From Dehalococcoidia bacterium (GTDB lineage: Bacteria; Chloroflexota; Dehalococcoidia; GIF9; AB-539-J10), in assembly GCA_030606165.1 (NCBI GenBank), contig JAUWGZ010000002.1, positions 1-39,231 of the forward strand: 39,231 nt of DNA. The letters run 5' to 3'. Shown here in pieces: positions 4,278 through 17,121 of the stretch; positions within the stretch are counted from its first letter, which is position 1, and each line of letters starts with the position of its first letter. The notes under the pieces are model-generated. The model was not told the DNA's origin, did no database searches, and was given only the letters and a program-made list of their open reading frames with translations. The position numbers and the translations under genes were made by a program.

Positions 4278-5279
4278 TTAGCCAGCTAGTAACTCCTTCA
4301 GCTTGTTAGTGAAGGCTGGCACCACTTCTTCATATTTACCCACCACTCCAAATTCCGCCTCCCGGAATATGTTCGCCTCAGGGTCCTTATTGATGGCTAT
4401 GATGTGCTTGGAGCCTGAACATCCAGCCGTGTGCTGGCTGGCACCGGAAACAGCTATAGCAATGTAAATATCAGGGGCAACAATCTTTCCAGTGAGGCCG
4501 ATATGCGCTGCCTCTGGCACCCAGCCGTTATCAGCAGGAGGACGTGAGGAACCTACCGCACCGTGCAGCAAATCAGCTAGCGCTTTCAATGTAGTTTGGA
4601 AGGGCTCAGGACCACCCACCCCCCTGCCTCCACAGACAATCACAGGAGCATCCTCAAGCTTAATGCCGACCGCCTCTTCCTTAACAGTTTCTAATATCTT
4701 TGTCCTTACTTTCGACGTATCTATGTCAATCTTAGTGGGCATGACCTCTCCTTTCCTCGAGTCATCACGCTCCAACGGTGACATTGCCTTGGTCCTGACA
4801 GTAACCACCTGAGGCATAAGCTCGCTGGTGAATATGGCTTGAGCATTGCCGCCATAAACAGGCCGCTTTTGTATCAGCAGCTTCGTCGCCGGGTCTATAC
4901 TTAAGTCGAGACAATCTGTTGTCAGGCTGGTACCTAGTCTGAAGGCAAGGCGAGGAGCCAAGTCTCTACCCAGAGAAGTTTGCCCTATAAGTATTGCCCG
5001 AGGCGAAATTTCTTTGACCAATTTTTCCACGGCTTGCATATAGGAATCTGCTTGATATTCTTTGAAGGTGGGGTGTTCTACAGAATAAAACTTGTCTGCT
5101 CCGAAGGCAATCGCTTCTTTAGAGGCCCCACCCACTGCATCGCTGGCCAGCAGGCAAGATAAGTCTTCCTTCAGGTCATCGGCAAGCTTCCTACCACATC
5201 CTAGCAACTCAGTAGTAATGGAGGCTAGCTTCCCGTTTGCTAGCTCACCACAAACTAATATACCTTTGTTTTCAGCCAT
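4278..5279 (-). CDS. etfA: Electron transfer flavoprotein alpha subunit
   Basis: 333 aa with a C-terminal FAD-binding ETF-alpha pattern (VCGGRGVGG, IGLTGKIVAPDIYIAIAVSGASQHTAG). AAGGAGG RBS. Sits directly downstream of etfB. Confidence 0.9.
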   Translation of the reverse strand: MAENKGILVCGELANGKLASITTELLGCGRKLADDLKEDLSCLLASDAVGGASKEAIAFGADKFYSVEHPTFKEYQADSYMQAVEKLVKEISPRAILIGQTSLGRDLAPRLAFRLGTSLTTDCLDLSIDPATKLLIQKRPVYGGNAQAIFTSELMPQVVTVRTKAMSPLERDDSRKGEVMPTKIDIDTSKVRTKILETVKEEAVGIKLEDAPVIVCGGRGVGGPEPFQTTLKALADLLHGAVGSSRPPADNGWVPEAAHIGLTGKIVAPDIYIAIAVSGASQHTAGCSGSKHIIAINKDPEANIFREAEFGVVGKYEEVVPAFTNKLKELLAG

Positions 5280-5295
5280 TATTTCCTCCTTAACT

Positions 5296-6096
5296 TTAAA
5301 GCAATTTGGCTTCCTTGAGCCTTACGGCCAGATTAGCGCCCGCCTCTGCGGGCGTCTCTCCTTCGATGATTTCACATTTGGCTTCCTTGACTGGCTGAAA
5401 GAGTTTATCTAACTTGCTACGCCTTCCAGCAGCGCCAACTTGTGAAGGCTCAAGCCCAATATCGGCTGGTTTCCAGATGACAGGTTGTTTTTTACCCGCT
5501 GCCATGATTCCTTTCAAGGTGGGATAACGAAGTGCTCCTATCCCGCTGGTTACTATAATTAGGGCGGGAAGCGTCACTTCAACAACCTGATAGCCGTCGG
5601 GAATAACTCGCTCAACCTTCGCTTTTCCATCGGTGACCTCTACCTTACGAGCTAAAGTTACAGCCGGGATTCCTAAAATCTCAGCAATGCCTAGACCCAC
5701 TTGCCCGGCATCCCAGTCAGAGGATTGCCTACCGCAAAAAATAATGTCATATTCCCCTATTTTCTTTATCGCCATAGCCAAGGCGTTGGCAGTTGACCAG
5801 CTATCGCCTTCCTCAAAAGCTTCATCTTCCATAAGAATGAGTTCATCGCCCCCCACAGCTAATGCTTTCTTAATTACATCGCGAACGAAGTTATTACCTA
5901 AGCTGAGCGCGGTAATTTTGCCCCCAGCGGTATCTTTGATTTTGAGGGCAGCTTCCAAGGCAAATTCCTCGTATTGACCGATTACAGGTTTTACGTCTGG
6001 CGGCAAGGTCATTTGGTTATTTACCACCTTAAACACAGCCGGTGGCGCCTCAGGATCAGGTACTTGCTTGCAGCAGACAATCATATTAACTGGCAT
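5296..6096 (-). CDS. etfB: Electron transfer flavoprotein beta subunit
   Basis: 266 aa with the ETF-beta pattern (CCKQVPD, DIIFCGRQSSDWDAGQVG). AAGGAGG lies 7 nt upstream of the ATG at 6096. Confidence 0.9.
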   Translation of the reverse strand: MPVNMIVCCKQVPDPEAPPAVFKVVNNQMTLPPDVKPVIGQYEEFALEAALKIKDTAGGKITALSLGNNFVRDVIKKALAVGGDELILMEDEAFEEGDSWSTANALAMAIKKIGEYDIIFCGRQSSDWDAGQVGLGIAEILGIPAVTLARKVEVTDGKAKVERVIPDGYQVVEVTLPALIIVTSGIGALRYPTLKGIMAAGKKQPVIWKPADIGLEPSQVGAAGRRSKLDKLFQPVKEAKCEIIEGETPAEAGANLAVRLKEAKLL

Positions 6097-11750: not shown

Positions 11751-12446
11751 CTAGAATTCAGGATTTAACTCATGTGAAGAGTGGAGTGGCTTAGTTTTGA
11801 GTTCCAATATCTCATGCAACTTTGTCAGGGCTTTTTTGGTATCGCTAGCCACGCAGGATTTATCACGCCTTTTTATACGATATTTAAATAGCCAATAGGT
11901 AAATTCATTAAGCCCGCTCAGGCTTATAGACCTGAGCTGAGGATAATGTCTCTCTTTTCTAAACTGCTTCAAAAGGGCAAATTGAGTGGCACCATAAATG
12001 CTTTGGTAGGCCTCGTCGACTACTCCGTTATCGTTGTTCAAACCTAAAACTCTCTTTTTCTTTCGTATCTCTTCAGTTACAGCCAAAAAGAGAAATTTTT
12101 CCACAAGAATGCCATAGAAATAGTTGAGGTGAGCCTGGTATTTAGAAGCACCGATTATATTCTTAAACTCGTCTTTAGATAATTCTATCGGTGGTATACC
12201 GAAGAAGAGAAGATTGGCCCGCTCCTTTTCTGGAATAAGTCCATCGAGCTCTTCACATAACCTCTCTGCCAGAACTATCCAATCGAAGGCTTCGTTGTCA
12301 ACAAGATACTGATAATGTCGCCCGTCATAGTCCTCTTCAGGACTACGCCAGAGACGAATGGCTTCAAGAACAGCCACATACCAATTCTTGCCTTCAGCAA
12401 TAGCACTTTTCAGCCCTTGGATTGCCTGAGTATCTCGAGTAGACAC
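11751..12446 (-). CDS. Hypothetical protein, no recognisable family (231 aa from GTG 12446; 236 aa if GTG 12461)
   Basis: Long ORF with protein-like composition, convergent with valS. GGAGG at 12459-12455 sits 8 nt before the GTG at 12446. A TTGAGT-17-TATAAT promoter lies upstream. Confidence 0.55.
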   Translation of the reverse strand: MSTRDTQAIQGLKSAIAEGKNWYVAVLEAIRLWRSPEEDYDGRHYQYLVDNEAFDWIVLAERLCEELDGLIPEKERANLLFFGIPPIELSKDEFKNIIGASKYQAHLNYFYGILVEKFLFLAVTEEIRKKKRVLGLNNDNGVVDEAYQSIYGATQFALLKQFRKERHYPQLRSISLSGLNEFTYWLFKYRIKRRDKSCVASDTKKALTKLHEILELKTKPLHSSHELNPEF

Positions 12447-12480
12447 TCCAGCCACCTCCACAATTATTCCGGAAAACTAT

Positions 12481-12724: not shown

Positions 12725-13345
12725 ATGAACGAAGAGTATGATACAGAACGAGCTATGGTATTCGTTGATGGCAATAACTTATACCATAGCTTGAGGGAAA
12801 ATGACTGGAGAACGTGGACTGACATCGGTCTGTTAGCCGAGAGGTTGGCCGGCGATAGAACTCTAGTACACATTTATTACTATAATGCTCCTCCTCCAGG
12901 TAGTAAACCTCATACAGAAAAAGGTAATGCTTATCTTTCTCGTGTGAAAAGAACACCTAATCTTACATTCCGTTCTTCTTGGTTGCAGCCCACTAAAAAA
13001 GCCGATGAATACGGGGTGTATCAGTCATACAGAGAAAAGGGTTGCGATACGGCCATTGCTACTGATATGGTGTCTTTAGCGGCTAACGATGAGTATGACA
13101 TAGCCATAATTGTGGCGAGTGACGGAGATTATGCACCTGCTGCAAAGAAACTATGCGACTATGGCAAATCCGTTGAAGTAGTATATTTCCCTGGCCGTAA
13201 ACCTTTCATTATGGAAGAATACGCATTGATGAGAGCATTTCGGCCTGGTTACGCTATTCCGTATGACTACTCTGAACGCCCACCACGGAGGCCTACCGGC
13301 AAATCACGTAAGGAATCATACAGGAGAAATCGACGTAGAAGATAA
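12725..13345 (+). CDS. NYN (LabA-like) domain ribonuclease with arginine-rich C-terminal tail
   Basis: MVFVDGNNLYHSL, GCDTAIATDM and IIVASDGDYAPAAKKLCDYGKSVEVV match the NYN/LabA acidic-residue pattern. The tail reads RPPRRPTGKSRKESYRRNRRRR. The start is uncertain: ATG 12725 has no obvious SD, and the ATG about 30 nt downstream is an alternative. Confidence 0.8.
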   Translation: MNEEYDTERAMVFVDGNNLYHSLRENDWRTWTDIGLLAERLAGDRTLVHIYYYNAPPPGSKPHTEKGNAYLSRVKRTPNLTFRSSWLQPTKKADEYGVYQSYREKGCDTAIATDMVSLAANDEYDIAIIVASDGDYAPAAKKLCDYGKSVEVVYFPGRKPFIMEEYALMRAFRPGYAIPYDYSERPPRRPTGKSRKESYRRNRRRR

Positions 13346-13503
13346 AGGCCATTAATCGGCCAATTCTACTAAATCCTTTATAGTACAAATATGGTTAGTT
13401 AATCCAGTTGCCATTGCTGGCGTTCTCAGACATGGGTTAGCTAACGATTCAATTGAGCATTCTTTAGTGGGCTTTGTGCTAGTCTTCTTTGTGATAAAGA
13501 AAT

Positions 13504-13530
13504 CCCTACTTGAAACAGTAGGGTTCTTCT
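13504..13530 (+). terminator. Hairpin CCCTACT-tgaaac-AGTAGGG followed by TTCTTCT; likely terminator after the NYN gene
   Basis: A 7-bp perfect stem read directly. It also has a T-rich tail on the opposite strand. Confidence 0.35.
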
Positions 13531-13577
13531 GATATTATGAGTTGCAAAGAATATAGCGTATTTAAACTCTGCCTGCA

Positions 13578-13606
13578 ATTCTAAGTTACTGACATTAACT
13601 TAGAAT
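13578..13606. promoter_or_regulatory. Perfect 11-bp palindrome ATTCTAAGTTA, 7-nt spacer, TAACTTAGAAT upstream of the 262-aa/PIN bicistron; candidate autoregulatory operator
   Basis: Read directly. The right arm overlaps a -35-like TTAGAA that sits 16-17 nt before TATTAT (about 13624-13629). AAAGGAGGG and the ATG at 13660 follow. Confidence 0.45.
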
Positions 13607-13659
13607 GCCCTTCGTCAGCAGTTATTATATCACGTCTGCAAAAGGAGGGCAAGTTCAAG

Positions 13660-14448
13660 ATGAACAGCAGTACTATTTCAAAAAGCTTCATAGAGGTTAG
13701 CTTTTCAGGCGAGGGTATCAAACCAGACTCCGTAAAGGCTAGTGACATTGCAGATATTCTCAACGCTGTGGAGGATATGGTTGAGTCTCAAGTCTTTCGA
13801 GACCACCCTGAAATTGACAAGGAACAAGTCATTCTTGGTTTTGTTAATATAAAGTCAGATAGTGTTGACCTCCAATTTGTTTCTCCTATTCAGGAAATAG
13901 TGTTTCCTATATTCCGAAGCATTGGGCAAGCCGTAAAAACCAATGATTATAAGGACTTGCCTACAAGCTCTATAGATGCACTTGACACAATAGTGTCATT
14001 CTCACGTAAAAAACAGTGTATTGCCGAATTTGTGACCAACAATGGACATCGTGAAGTTCTTGCAACGATTACACCAAAAACCACACTGGAAAGACGTGCG
14101 AGATTATCTGGTGAAACTACAATATACGGTCAGGTCGTGAGGGTAGGGGGTAGAGACCCAAGGGCTATGGTAGAGTTGCTTAATGGTCAAACAGTATTTT
14201 GCGATACAAATGAAGCTATAGCTAAGAAACTTGGTAGTAGGCTCTATACTATTGTTGGTTTATTTGGAATGGCACGATGGGACGATGAATCATTAAAGTT
14301 AGAACAATTCACGATAAAAGACATTACACCCTATGAAGAATTGCCATTGGAAGACGTTATGAGCCAATTAGCTAAGGCTGTAGGTGTGTATTATAGGGAT
14401 GTAACTGACGTAGAAAAGTATATTTCCGACATCAGGGGTAAGGTTTAA
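13660..14448 (+). CDS. Hypothetical 262-aa protein, no family recognised; upstream partner of the PIN nuclease
   Basis: AGGAGG-type RBS and protein-like composition. Its stop lies 7 nt before the PIN ATG, giving an operonic pair. Confidence 0.7.
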   Translation: MNSSTISKSFIEVSFSGEGIKPDSVKASDIADILNAVEDMVESQVFRDHPEIDKEQVILGFVNIKSDSVDLQFVSPIQEIVFPIFRSIGQAVKTNDYKDLPTSSIDALDTIVSFSRKKQCIAEFVTNNGHREVLATITPKTTLERRARLSGETTIYGQVVRVGGRDPRAMVELLNGQTVFCDTNEAIAKKLGSRLYTIVGLFGMARWDDESLKLEQFTIKDITPYEELPLEDVMSQLAKAVGVYYRDVTDVEKYISDIRGKV

Positions 14449-14455
14449 GAACCGA

Positions 14456-14953
14456 ATGAATTTAGTTTGCTTCGATAATCATGTTCTAGTATGGGGTATT
14501 AAGGAACAAGCAACTCCTGGGCAGGAAGATATGATACCACGCACAAAGGCATTCATTAGTAAATTACAAAACGATAAAATACATGTCCTGATACCCTCTG
14601 TTGTCGTTGCTGAATTTCTAATGCCTATTCCCCCAAATATGCATGCCACTGTAATAAATTTATTTGATAGGGGTTTTGTTGTAGCTCCATTTGATACAGC
14701 GGCTGCTAGTCAATTTGCCAAGATTTGGCTATCTAAGAAGGGACAGGAACTTGCAAATAACCTAGTTAAGAATGGCGCAACCAGAGCTGAATTAAAGATA
14801 GATAGCTTAATTGTGGCTACCGCTATTTCACAAAAGGCTGAATGTATCTATAGCCACGATGCCGGAGTGAGAGCATTTGCACAAGATTATATTGAGGTAA
14901 AAGAAATCCCCTTTATCCCCCTACAGATAAATATGCCAACAGAAAAGAGTTAG
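14456..14953 (+). CDS. PIN-domain nuclease (VapC-like toxin candidate)
   Basis: 165 aa. The four acidic PIN positions are recognisable: D7 (CFDNHVL), E53 (VVVAEFL), D116 (KIDSLIVATAI) and D135 (YSHD). Confidence 0.75.
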   Translation: MNLVCFDNHVLVWGIKEQATPGQEDMIPRTKAFISKLQNDKIHVLIPSVVVAEFLMPIPPNMHATVINLFDRGFVVAPFDTAAASQFAKIWLSKKGQELANNLVKNGATRAELKIDSLIVATAISQKAECIYSHDAGVRAFAQDYIEVKEIPFIPLQINMPTEKS

Positions 14954-14991
14954 CATTTATTCCACCTTTTTGAGCAGCATTCCTTGCTATC

Positions 14992-15126
14992 TTATTTCTT
15001 TTCAAAACGAGTCTTGCCACCTTTTAAACCACCTAACCTACCAAGTGCAACAGCATGAGGATTCTTCCCATTGATTAACGCTGGCTCTGTTTGCTTGGGT
15101 TCAAGCTCAATAGGTCTTGACAGGTT
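14992..15126 (-). pseudogene. Start-less 44-codon remnant ending ...NGKNPHAVALGRLGGLKGGKTRFEKK*
   Basis: The open frame is bounded by a stop at 15127-15129 and has no ATG, GTG or TTG. The AVALGRLGG-KGGK motif recalls small basic ORFs common in mobile or TA-rich regions; this is from memory, not searched. Confidence 0.3.
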
Positions 15127-15193
15127 TTATAGTGTTTTCTTTATTTTTCATTATCAGCTAAAATCGAACAGAACCTATGAATTCTAACGTAAA

Positions 15194-15223
15194 TTGACAG
15201 TGCCCATTTTTCTAGGCTATTAT
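15194..15223 (+). promoter_or_regulatory. Promoter of the GreA-like gene (-35 TTGACA, 18 nt, -10 TATTAT)
   Basis: TTGACA at 15194-15199 and TATTAT at 15218-15223. Only 7 nt separate the -10 element from the TTG start at 15231. Confidence 0.4.
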
Positions 15224-15230
15224 CTACTTC

Positions 15231-16049
15231 TTGGTGGAAAACACCTCTGCGCACAATCCGACACTTACTGAAGCAGCTGACGCTTTCCTATCAAATTTAC
15301 CGCCGGAAGAAAGGGTAAAAACACAGGCAGAGATATCTAAATTCGCCAGATGGCTTGGCTTATCCAGGCAAGTAAAGGACGTTAGCCCTGTAGATGTGGC
15401 TAGCTATGGTGAACACATTATCCCATCGGCAGTCAAACCCCTCAGGTCTTTTCTTACGTACATCCGGAAAAAGAGATTCAGCAGCATAAATTTAGCTCCT
15501 CACCTCAGGGCGAAAAAAACTTCTTCAAAAACAGTCGCCGTTCGGCAAAGTGGTCAGGTCCAGGCTACCCTAACTGCACAAGGCTACGCAAAATTAGAGA
15601 AGGAATTAGCCAACCTGAAAAATCAACGCTCCCAAGTTATTGATGAGATACAAAAGGCAGCCGCTGACAAGGACTTCCGAGAAAATGCCCCCCTGGCAGC
15701 AGCTAGAGAGCGTAAGGCATATTCGGAAGGAAGAATTAAGGAGATAGAGTCAATCTTAAATCGGGCGCAGATAGTGGGGGAAGACCAGGACACATCCAAG
15801 GCAAAATTCGGAGACACAGTAGTGCTTCGTGATTTATCCTCAGGTAAAGAATCCAGCTATACTCTAGTCGATCCCCGAGAGGCAAATCCAGCCAAGGGTA
15901 AACTTTCTGTTGCTTCCCCCCTGGGCAAAGCAATCCTGGATAAAGAAAAGGGGCAAACAGTTGAAGTTATCGCTCCTGCTGGTACCTTCTGCTGCCGCAT
16001 TGAAGACATTTTGGCCCTCTCAACGGAAAGAAAAGCCAGCCCGCAGTGA
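15231..16049 (+). CDS. GreA/GreB-family transcript cleavage factor with ~110-aa N-terminal extension
   Basis: Residues ~113-260 show a GreA coiled coil (LTAQGYAKLEKELANLK...DFRENAPLAAARERK) and a C-terminal globular domain (KFGDTVVLRD...VASPLGKAILDKEKGQTVEV). The N-terminal ~110 aa are extra. TTG or GTG start. Confidence 0.85.
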   Translation: MVENTSAHNPTLTEAADAFLSNLPPEERVKTQAEISKFARWLGLSRQVKDVSPVDVASYGEHIIPSAVKPLRSFLTYIRKKRFSSINLAPHLRAKKTSSKTVAVRQSGQVQATLTAQGYAKLEKELANLKNQRSQVIDEIQKAAADKDFRENAPLAAARERKAYSEGRIKEIESILNRAQIVGEDQDTSKAKFGDTVVLRDLSSGKESSYTLVDPREANPAKGKLSVASPLGKAILDKEKGQTVEVIAPAGTFCCRIEDILALSTERKASPQ

Positions 16050-16185: not shown

Positions 16186-16277
16186 GGAGGGATCGCATAG
16201 TGGTCTAGTGCGGGCGCCTGCTAAGCGCTTACTCCGAGTTATCGGGGTCGAGGGTTCGAATCCCTCTCCCTCCGCCA
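16186..16277 (+). tRNA. tRNA-Ser (anticodon GCU), long variable arm, encoded CCA
   Basis: Cloverleaf folded by hand. Acceptor stem GGAGGGA/TCCCTCC, D-stem GCA/TGC, anticodon stem GGCGC/GCGCT with loop CTGCTAA, long variable arm, T-arm GAGGG-TTCGAAT-CCCTC, discriminator G, then CCA. Confidence 0.9.
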
Positions 16278-16530: not shown

Positions 16531-17121
16531 ATGATATCAGCAATACTCCTAGCTGCCGGTGAATCAAATCGCATGGGTCAGCCAAAGCAACTGATGCCTT
16601 TTGGCCAGAGTACCATTTTGGAAACAACCATTGACAATCTTTTGAATTCAGCAGTAAGCGAGACTATCGTGGTGCTGGGATACAGAGATGAGGGGATACG
16701 AAAAACTATAGCCGGCAAACCGGTTAAGGTAGCAATAAATCCAGATTACCAGCAAGGGATGAGCGCCTCCATAATTGCTGGATTAAAATAAATTGATAAA
16801 AGAGCCAGGGCAGTGCTTATCGCCCTGGGTGACCAGCCTTTTGTTGACAGTCAGACCATCAATAGCTTAGTAGAAGCATTCATAGCTAATAAGAGAGGAA
16901 TTATTATCCCGGTCTATCAGGGCAGAAGGGGGAATCCCGTTATCTTCGCTATCGGATATAAGGGCGAACTCTTGAATCTAAAGGGAGACGTTGGTGGCAG
17001 GGAAATAGTCAAACGTCACCCTGATGACGTGCTTGAAGTGGCGGTCAACTGTGAAGGCGTCTTGCTTGACATTGATACCGCGGAAAATTATACTTCGATT
17101 ATATTTAATCCTGATAAATAA
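16531..17121 (+). pseudogene. MocA/MobA-like molybdenum cofactor nucleotidyltransferase interrupted by an in-frame TAA (16789-16791)
   Basis: ORFs 16531-16791 and 16813-17121 are in the same frame. Read through, the sequence is ...SIIAGLK*IDKRARAVLIALGDQPFV... The N-terminal motif is LLAAGESNRMGQPK and the motif after the stop is ALGDQP. The stop falls in a poorly conserved loop. Confidence 0.7.

Follow-up and report, generated by a model that had tools for sequence, protein, structure and literature searches.

No toxin family is more abundant in prokaryotes than the PIN/VapC nucleases, and the antidotes known for them are, to our knowledge, small DNA-binding proteins. Departures from this scheme have been reported by NetFlax, in which PIN toxins are paired with non-canonical antitoxins (PanA, SpnP3/DUF2680, SynP1 and others), recombine with numerous antitoxin folds that are unrelated to one another and often lie near defence genes (PMC10440598), and among the clusters in a survey of the PIN superfamily there are several without an assigned function (PMC5499597). 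Here we examine a two-gene locus in a 39,231-bp stretch of DNA from a Dehalococcoidia bacterium (contig JAUWGZ010000002.1, assembly GCA_030606165.1), in which a gene for a 262-aa protein, hereafter gene A with its product A, precedes a PIN-domain gene. The whole stretch is referred to as the window, and its open reading frames (ORFs), repeats and promoters were located by window coordinates (Table 1). The original prediction for this DNA had described a 262-aa ORF, a 7-nt gap and a PIN ORF downstream, all of which were recovered at the same coordinates. The sequence comparisons indicate that A and PIN are a genuine, strictly co-occurring conserved pair, which is best read as a module of toxin-antitoxin or abortive-infection type that resembles VapBC and has a putative new class of antitoxin.

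The PIN nuclease and its OB-fold partner

Its alignment and profile matches show the downstream protein to be a nuclease of the VapC type, in which the four acids of the catalytic site are conserved. Pfam PIN is matched by 25 of 25 members of the family (best E = 3e-13), and in the alignment of 25 PIN homologues, with identity down to 31%, E53, D116 and D135 are invariant and D7 is nearly so; the four acidic residues first read as intact in the window protein are present there and conserved among these homologues. A profile search of solved structures with PIN ranked VapC toxins first (4chg, E = 0.0046; 3zvk; 3tnd). The protein (pI 6.4) also matches phrog_21691 (2.8e-16), a PHROG of unknown function, and PADLOC models gave zero matches among the PIN family. 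Its predicted activity is that of a Mg2+-dependent endoribonuclease toxin.

The pairing was followed by running hidden Markov models of A and PIN over every fetched locus, where L-numbered loci are fetched contigs with gene A homologues, and P0070, P0093, P0054 and three IMG/VR contigs are loci picked from the PIN side. Provided that the contig runs on for at least about 150 nt, a PIN gene of the same subfamily comes next after A on the same strand, with a spacing that ranges from a few nucleotides of overlap to about 14 nt, and this holds for some 26 distinct loci with A identities from 93% down to 29%. This observation is further strengthened from the other direction, in that six of the six PIN-side picks have A upstream (BLASTP, 2e-34 and 5e-31), and the expectation that A homologues neighbour PIN genes was thereby borne out in these loci. 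The hosts include Dehalococcoidales and other Chloroflexota metagenome-assembled genomes (MAGs), Microbulbifer rhizosphaerae, a Clostridia MAG and Sinorhizobium. The three IMG/VR viral contigs that carry the pair came from a scan with the PIN alignment; the IMG/VR pattern scan with the A alignment found nothing, and tblastn against GenBank phages gave zero matches.

Several properties of these loci are toxin-antitoxin-like, namely the partner gene coming first, the close spacing or overlap, and a PIN protein that is consistently more conserved than A among homologues. In L014-16 and L022 PIN is interrupted after codon 82 with A intact (three assemblies break at that point), and in the Sinorhizobium locus L034 PIN is frameshifted, again with A intact; the reverse case, A disrupted and PIN intact, was not seen among the fetched loci.

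The partner belongs to a large family that carries no name. An exhaustive profile search with gene A returned 1,704 clusters at 50% identity (E <= 1e-3), 421 of them with E <= 1e-30, and the length is nearly always 250-290 aa among the 150 best-scoring proteins. A word-indexed search gave 19 close homologues, all unnamed and without Pfam domains, and a broader alignment (A3) used in the same kind of protein search added few members and zero names or domains. The gene A protein matched no family in Pfam, NCBIfam or PADLOC, and across the family PADLOC gave only sporadic weak matches to PDC-M32A (best 1.8e-4, in 1-2 of 42 members). A does match phrog_19868 (4.5e-13), a PHROG of unknown function, while a sequence search of the PDB returned only noise such as myosin light chains. 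Pfam, NCBIfam, PDB and Foldseek agree with the view that neither an antitoxin fold nor a DNA-binding fold can be recognised in the partner, and the possibility that it falls into a known family unrelated to nuclease control found no named Pfam, NCBIfam or PADLOC family behind it.

The AlphaFold2 model of A (mean predicted local distance difference test score, pLDDT, 83) has three parts. Residues 10-137 form an alpha/beta domain of the order beta-alpha-beta-beta-alpha-alpha-beta-beta, residues 149-224 a barrel of the order b1-b2-b3-alpha-b4-b5, and residues 230-260 two C-terminal helices. The modelled barrel (strands 149-163, 168-173 and 178-182, helix 185-192, strands 198-207 and 214-224) is five-stranded with a helix between strands 3 and 4, which is the arrangement that defines an OB fold, and Foldseek against the PDB places it near IF1/eIF1A, the LysRS anticodon-binding (N-) domain, the ExoVII OB domain and RPA (E about 5e-4). 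On the model, the C-terminal-half barrel is an OB fold; the original prediction had proposed a small beta-barrel in this half, from a peptide that corresponds to residues 152-207 of A, and the AlphaFold and Foldseek results make that proposal more specific. The N-domain modelled alone scored a pLDDT of 88 and a predicted template-modelling (TM) score of 0.82, and Foldseek with this domain alone found nothing significant, the best being generic ferredoxin-like sandwiches (E = 4.6e-3, TM < 0.4). As modelled, it is a new alpha/beta domain.

Among 150 diverse representatives, conservation is highest in the barrel at T153, G157, the RVGG loop (161-164), P167, L195, Y196, G203, W207 and F217, and at the C-terminus at R259 (94%). 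The OB domain carries the conserved aromatics Y156, Y196, W207 and F217. In L004-6 A is only 213 aa long, is without most of the N-domain, and aligns from profile position 100 onward, and the conserved core is therefore the OB fold with the C-terminal tail. The protein is acidic overall (pI 4.9), with values of 4.8 for the N-domain, 6.5 for the OB fold and 4.7 for the tail. Separately, three uncharacterised (pro)phage proteins in BFVD match the A model over its full length (E 2e-11 to 2e-6): a DUF6575 protein (Siphoviridae sp. ctoic9), a 270-aa protein (Myoviridae sp. ctLIM9) and Q6NE06 (Leptospira phage LE1). These matches hint at a wider superfamily with the same modelled N-domain and OB architecture; as a clue to the function of A they were set aside as uninformative.

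Gene order, close spacing or overlap, an acidic A, a more conserved PIN, loss of PIN with A kept, and a mobile defence-island context are the grounds on which we read A-PIN, with moderate confidence, as a toxin-antitoxin-type module in which A would neutralise the PIN ribonuclease by direct binding. A would be the protein antitoxin, holding and blocking PIN through its OB fold and/or its C-terminal helical tail. R259 may reach into the acidic PIN active site, an arrangement that we take to resemble the C-terminal arginine with which FitA/VapB antitoxins plug the acidic pocket. The leader would keep expression low, the 11-bp hairpin or palindrome described below abutting a helix that hides the ribosome-binding site, and feedback could run through this leader by way of the module's own proteins or of RNA structure alone. 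The role of such a module might be mobile-element stabilisation and/or abortive-infection defence, triggered by loss or titration of A.

The OB fold also opens a different reading, in which the pair would be a heteromeric RNA-processing or decay nuclease, regulatory and not toxic, with A as the RNA-binding specificity subunit that delivers structured RNAs, possibly its own leader hairpin, to PIN. The known folds that the barrel most resembles (IF1, the LysRS anticodon-binding domain, RPA and the ExoVII OB domain) would suit such a role, as would the conserved hairpin in the probable leader and the position of some A-PIN loci among housekeeping genes. PIN nucleases often occur with RNA-binding modules; in Rrp44/Dis3, for example, PIN is joined to CSD/S1 OB folds. 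PIN-TRAM proteins offer a second example (PMC5499597). Set against this are the patchy, mobile distribution of the pair, with insertion contexts that differ even among cassettes about 80% identical, the pseudogenisation of PIN in some lineages, an OB domain that is not basic, and the want of any link to a conserved cellular operon; the pair is also, as largely seen, absent from most members of any clade and without a fixed genomic position. We regard an RNA-processing role as very improbable.

The control region

The original prediction had drawn attention to a perfect 11-bp inverted repeat at 13578-13588/13596-13606, and the repeat proved to be as described, with arms ATTCTAAGTTA (13578-13588) and TAACTTAGAAT (13596-13606) that are perfect reverse complements across a 7-nt spacer and that extend to 14 nt with one mismatch. 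No other perfect inverted repeat in the window reaches 11 bp with a loop no longer than 12 nt, and the chance expectation from 30 first-order Markov simulations is 0.07 such repeats per window. A control-region alignment was built from ten loci with 52-85% A identity, and in these the repeat is kept 46-55 nt before the start codon. Its arms change in a compensated manner, as in the pairs CTAAGTTA/TAACTTAG, CTAAACTA/TAGTTTAG, CTAAGCTA/TAGCTTAG, CTCAAAACTA/TAGTTTTGAG and CTCGAAGCTG/CAGTTTCGAG. In the registered alignment 91% of cells are paired and 8 of the 11 pairs show double-sided changes, values that were reached in 0 of 500 shuffles and that no slid register came close to; the register of three distant sequences was set by hand, and their repeats were found independently. 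Such covariation indicates that selection acts on the repeat. In the close clade the loops are 7 nt long and read nUGnnAn, and three more distant loci have 6-nt loops. A resemblance of the nUGnnAn loop to an anticodon loop (U33/R37-like) was considered and put aside as speculation only, given the 6-nt loops of the three distant loci.

The repeat sits between a promoter and a second helix. The extended -10 element TGnTAnTAT of promoter P1 (window 13530-13538) is invariant in all ten aligned loci, and the TTG at its -35 position lies inside a conserved G+C hairpin (13504-13523) that close relatives share, at the cassette's left edge, while the spacer between P1 and the repeat is poorly conserved. 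Transcription from P1 is predicted to start near 13545, about 7 nt after the -10, and from this start the repeat may lie at about +34 to +62 of a leader of about 115 nt. Directly after the repeat follows a conserved CCCTCC motif (GCCCTTC in the window) and then a conserved stretch up to the Shine-Dalgarno (SD) sequence AAGGAGG, with which the motif can pair to form a leader helix. When folded, the leader RNA has a minimum free energy of -29.9 kcal/mol (z = -2.66), with the 11-bp hairpin first and the anti-SD/SD helix directly abutting it. RNAalifold gives a consensus with both helices, including the CCCTCC/GGAGGG pairing, in nine loci, and the L001 leader has the same architecture. The hairpin and anti-SD architecture is not recognisable in distant loci (L002, L007, L019 and others), and the control region is specific to the clade with at least about 52% A identity. 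Rfam on 13300-15300 found no family, the sole match being a sub-threshold chance match to a snoRNA model. By comparative sequence evidence this is a structured control region, composed of an invariant promoter, a covarying repeat and an anti-SD/SD helix.

The original prediction had given the repeat a different part, that of an autoregulatory operator overlapping the -35 region of a TATTAT promoter, which amounts to a classical DNA operator bound by the A-PIN complex. The overlap itself stands, as the right arm covers TTAGAA (13600-13605), 17 nt before the TATTAT at 13623-13628, which falls inside the anti-SD/SD helix; the promoter is less secure, since TTAGAA agrees with the -35 consensus in just 3 of its 6 bases and the promoter scan made no call here. 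An operator would be in keeping with an aligned -10 of TATTnT or TATATT in 8 of the 10 loci, with a right arm that gives TTGAGA or TTGAGT in some of them, and with the half-site CTAARYTA, which is fairly conserved across the ten loci as a protein-binding site would be. Palindromic operators are moreover the rule in type II toxin-antitoxin systems (PMC5499597). On the other side, an invariant extended -10 lies upstream in all ten loci, that of the window belonging to the better promoter P1, 90 nt upstream, and the conserved anti-SD motif has an explanation only where the region is transcribed; from the TATTAT promoter it would be untranscribed and unexplained. The operator reading is the weaker one. 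Transition-type arm mismatches are mostly G-T, the RNA wobble pair (5 vs 1), a bias that is suggestive only. A known or basic DNA-binding domain is missing from both proteins. The want of any basic domain in A leaves classical transcriptional autoregulation by A unsupported, and it is likewise not obvious that a protein acidic throughout would bind the palindrome. We therefore hold a DNA operator to be somewhat unlikely. Of the two readings, the stronger is that the repeat may act as a leader RNA hairpin.

In a bolder form of this RNA-level view, PIN toxins would have in A their first antitoxin or sensor class built on an OB fold. The leader hairpin, with its conserved 11-bp stem and its loop of 6-7 nt (nUGnnAn), stacks in the folded leader on the SD-hiding helix and would be recognised by A alone or by the A-PIN complex; binding there, or cleavage by PIN, would set the translation of both genes. 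The hairpin would then serve as a decoy for the structured RNA, a tRNA-like stem-loop for example, which the OB fold would present to PIN or withhold from it. We consider this full scheme quite improbable.

The mobile cassette and its neighbours

The pair travels as a compact unit. By blastn, a cassette (Table 1) is common to loci with unrelated flanks at 75-82% identity; homology with L011, L014, L035, L036 and L023 runs from 13468-13496 to 15079-15111, and the flanking genes vary by locus. These edges indicate that the 1.6-kb A-PIN cassette is self-contained and mobile between genomic contexts. In the window A and PIN are intact, and the transposase and the small gene that flank them have decayed. 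An intact IS1-family transposase (266-280 aa, HTH_Tnp_IS1 + DDE_Tnp_IS1) lies divergently upstream of A in at least six related loci, L003, L014, L023, L024, L035 and L039 (L035:1888-2730, L014:4877-5710, L039:166-1008, L003:202-894 and 4890-5690) at the same junction, which suggests that the insertion sequence (IS) element and the cassette travel together. Downstream of PIN, the small convergent gene is intact (75-92 aa) in L003, L023, L035 and L039 (L035:4328-4582, L039:2600-2827, L003:7335-7577 and 2212-2487, L023 at about 4380-4640). Its product carries the motif ...HAVALGRLGGLKGGKAR..KLTPEQR..IAKKAA..RW and has no Pfam match, and in L003 the gene is also found away from A-PIN. A single transposon made of transposase, A, PIN and small gene was considered and rejected, as no convincing terminal inverted repeats enclose the four.

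Table 1. Coordinates of the A-PIN locus and of its neighbours in the window
Feature	Position	Strand	Description
Whole mobile cassette	13492-15111	+	promoter, leader, gene A, PIN gene and conserved downstream stretch; edges from blastn homology
Gene A	13660-14448	+	262 aa, acidic partner protein; predicted alpha/beta N-domain ~1-145, OB fold ~149-225, C-terminal helices 230-260
PIN gene	14456-14953	+	165 aa, predicted VapC-like PIN-domain nuclease, D7/E53/D116/D135; 7 nt after gene A
G+C hairpin CCCTACT-tgaaac-AGTAGGG	13504-13523		loop with the -35 TTG of P1; terminator-like on both strands
Promoter P1, TTGAAA-17-TGaTATTAT	13510-13538	+	promoter scan 10/12 with TG motif; extended -10
Inverted repeat / hairpin HP1	13578-13606	+	two perfect 11-bp arms, 7-nt loop CTGACAT
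Leader helix HP2	13607-13650	+	anti-SD GCCCTTC 13607-13613 pairs with SD GGAGGGC 13644-13650, small inner hairpin between
IS1-family transposase remnant	13354-13449	-	3' end, ~96 nt, just left of the cassette; intact gene in related loci
Small convergent gene, pseudogene remnant	~14990-15111	-	...GKNPHAVALGRLGGLKGGKTRFEKK*; start-less and prematurely stopped in the window
ORF between valS and the NYN gene	11751-12461	-	236 aa; no Pfam, NCBIfam or PADLOC match; unrelated to the IS1-like transposase
NYN-domain nuclease gene	12725-13345	+	206 aa, upstream of the cassette; Pfam NYN 2e-20, PADLOC HEC-09 candidate defence model 9e-22
Promoter-like site	15194-15223		11/12, strong; at the GreA/GreB-like gene
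GreA/GreB-like gene	15231-16049	+	272 aa, N-terminal extension of ~110 aa
tRNA-Ser(GCU) gene	16186-16277	+	after the GreA/GreB-like gene
MobA-like NTP transferase, first ORF	16531-16791	+	matches the first half of the domain (profile positions 1-81)
MobA-like NTP transferase, second ORF	16813-17121	+	matches the second half of the domain (profile positions 90-159); adjacent to the first ORF

In the window, the NYN-domain gene places the cassette beside another possible defence nuclease. On the other flank, tRNA genes are common integration sites, and the nearby tRNA-Ser(GCU) gene fits a mobile cassette for that reason. Further downstream, the two MobA-like ORFs are one gene broken by a stop or frameshift, which could be a pseudogene or an assembly error. 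At L004-L006 (2910-4474, metagenomic) the shortened A and PIN lie inside an lpxD-fabZ-lpxA ... lpxB lipid-A cluster, where a 153-aa retropepsin-like (Asp_protease_2) ORF precedes A and overlaps its start.

Elsewhere the neighbours include integrases or primases and a range of restriction-modification (R-M) genes, among them EcoRV with a Dam-like methylase, an EcoRI-type methylase with GmrSD-HNH, and other DNA methylases; a methylase with UvrD-PDDEXK also adjoins the pair, and a methylase-Mrr fusion neighbours it on a viral contig. This company raises the alternative that A-PIN serves anti-phage defence as a two-component system and is no toxin-antitoxin pair. A would then be a required sensor or activator, which would detect a nucleic acid or a protein of the phage through its OB fold and would switch PIN on or guide it; defence would depend on both genes, with PIN alone being non-toxic. 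Besides the enrichment of the pair near R-M genes, GmrSD, UvrD-PDDEXK, NYN (HEC-09-like), integrases and IS elements, its occurrence on IMG/VR viral contigs and its PHROG matches point in this direction, and a large two-domain A with an OB fold looks more like a sensor than an antidote. The precedent is DS-5, a validated system of PIN and a partner, both of them required and explicitly not a toxin-antitoxin pair (PMC13092281). No PADLOC model matches either protein, however, and an antidote is the better fit to the order and the tight or overlapping arrangement of the genes, to the acidity of the protein encoded first and to the repeated loss of PIN from loci that keep A. We judge the defence alternative unlikely.

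The toxin-antitoxin interpretation has its own difficulties, which should be considered together. The DS-5 precedent is one of them, and A itself supplies several: it is three times the size of VapB, it shows no RHH, AbrB, HTH or Phd DNA-binding domain by Pfam, NCBIfam or Foldseek, contrary to what defines VapBC, and the isoelectric points per domain reveal no basic domain, which tells against transcriptional autoregulation. An OB fold, as modelled, would equally suit a substrate-recruiting or sensing subunit. The window PIN protein scores slightly below the Pfam PIN cut-off (22.1 against 23.6 bits), and some loci (L002, L004-6) lie among housekeeping genes. The biochemistry proposed for the pair is, finally, deduced from sequence and from structure models of A and of its N-domain.

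The pair deserves attention under either interpretation. The family is large (1,704 clusters at 50% identity), it is spread over several phyla and viral contigs, and in it PIN is tied to an OB-fold protein of 260 aa that no domain or defence database names. As an antitoxin, A would stand for an architecture new among antitoxins, perhaps autoregulated at the RNA level; if it is a sensor, the pair would be a new two-gene defence system. In both cases some two thousand pairs of hypothetical proteins would receive a name, and the compact 1.6-kb cassette offers clear predictions.

Comparison with known systems

On the database evidence, A-PIN matches no named family or catalogued defence system, and when the known defence systems of PADLOC-DB v2 were tried as candidates, the A and PIN of the window were unmatched. 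Full-text literature searches gave no description of an OB-fold partner of PIN. The PIN pairs of NetFlax differ on this point, in that PMC10440598 mentions no OB-fold partner and A matches none of the Pfam domains named there; the PIN superfamily survey (PMC5499597) does not mention such a partner either.

Two described defence systems bear comparison. The first is Dodola, whose DolA (DUF6414) is weakly matched by A in 7 of 20 close relatives (best E = 0.0026, A residues 8-174) and is the sole Pfam family to recur in this weak form. The score is 15.3 bits against a 25-bit cut-off, the match fades to 2 of 150 diverse representatives across the A family, and no PADLOC DolA match was obtained; no ClpB-like DolB or DolB-like ATPase was adjacent to A, whose partner is always PIN, and homology to DUF6414 was rejected. 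The second is DS-5, which likewise consists of two genes, one for a catalytic PIN and one for an accessory protein of larger size, and for which anti-phage defence has been validated. Compared on the partner domains, the DS-5 partner is DUF5830/AcrIF4-like, whereas no DUF5830 match was found here.

A PIN domain allied with an OB-type or beta-barrel module is also a feature of Rrp44/Dis3, with its CSD/S1 OB folds, and the TRAM module gives PIN-TRAM (COG4956; PMC5499597) the same general make-up. The A-PIN proteins differ from both in being separate polypeptides in a mobile operon, and in an OB domain that is not basic.

A-PIN is built much like VapBC/FitAB (M. tuberculosis VapBC15, 4chg; R. felis VapBC2, 3zvk; Shigella VapBC, 3tnd), with which it shares a downstream VapC-like four-acid PIN, a closely coupled or overlapping upstream partner, an acidic upstream protein, mobility, patchiness and a palindrome in the control region. 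Of the features that define VapBC, the locus has the PIN with conserved acidic residues and the two-gene order, with a gene in the antitoxin position upstream that overlaps or lies a few nucleotides away. As to the palindromic operator at the promoter, the locus has a conserved covarying palindrome, but one that stands downstream of the best-conserved promoter and may act as RNA. The small DNA-binding antitoxin is the feature that fails, and A-PIN is for this reason not to be filed as canonical VapBC; in its place stands a partner of about 260 aa, against 70-90 aa, in which an alpha/beta domain predicted to be new is followed by an OB fold and a tail of helices, with none of the RHH, AbrB, HTH or Phd folds. 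Where VapBC/FitAB modules are controlled through a promoter operator, control of A-PIN may be exerted at the level of RNA, through a leader hairpin and sequestration of the SD sequence.

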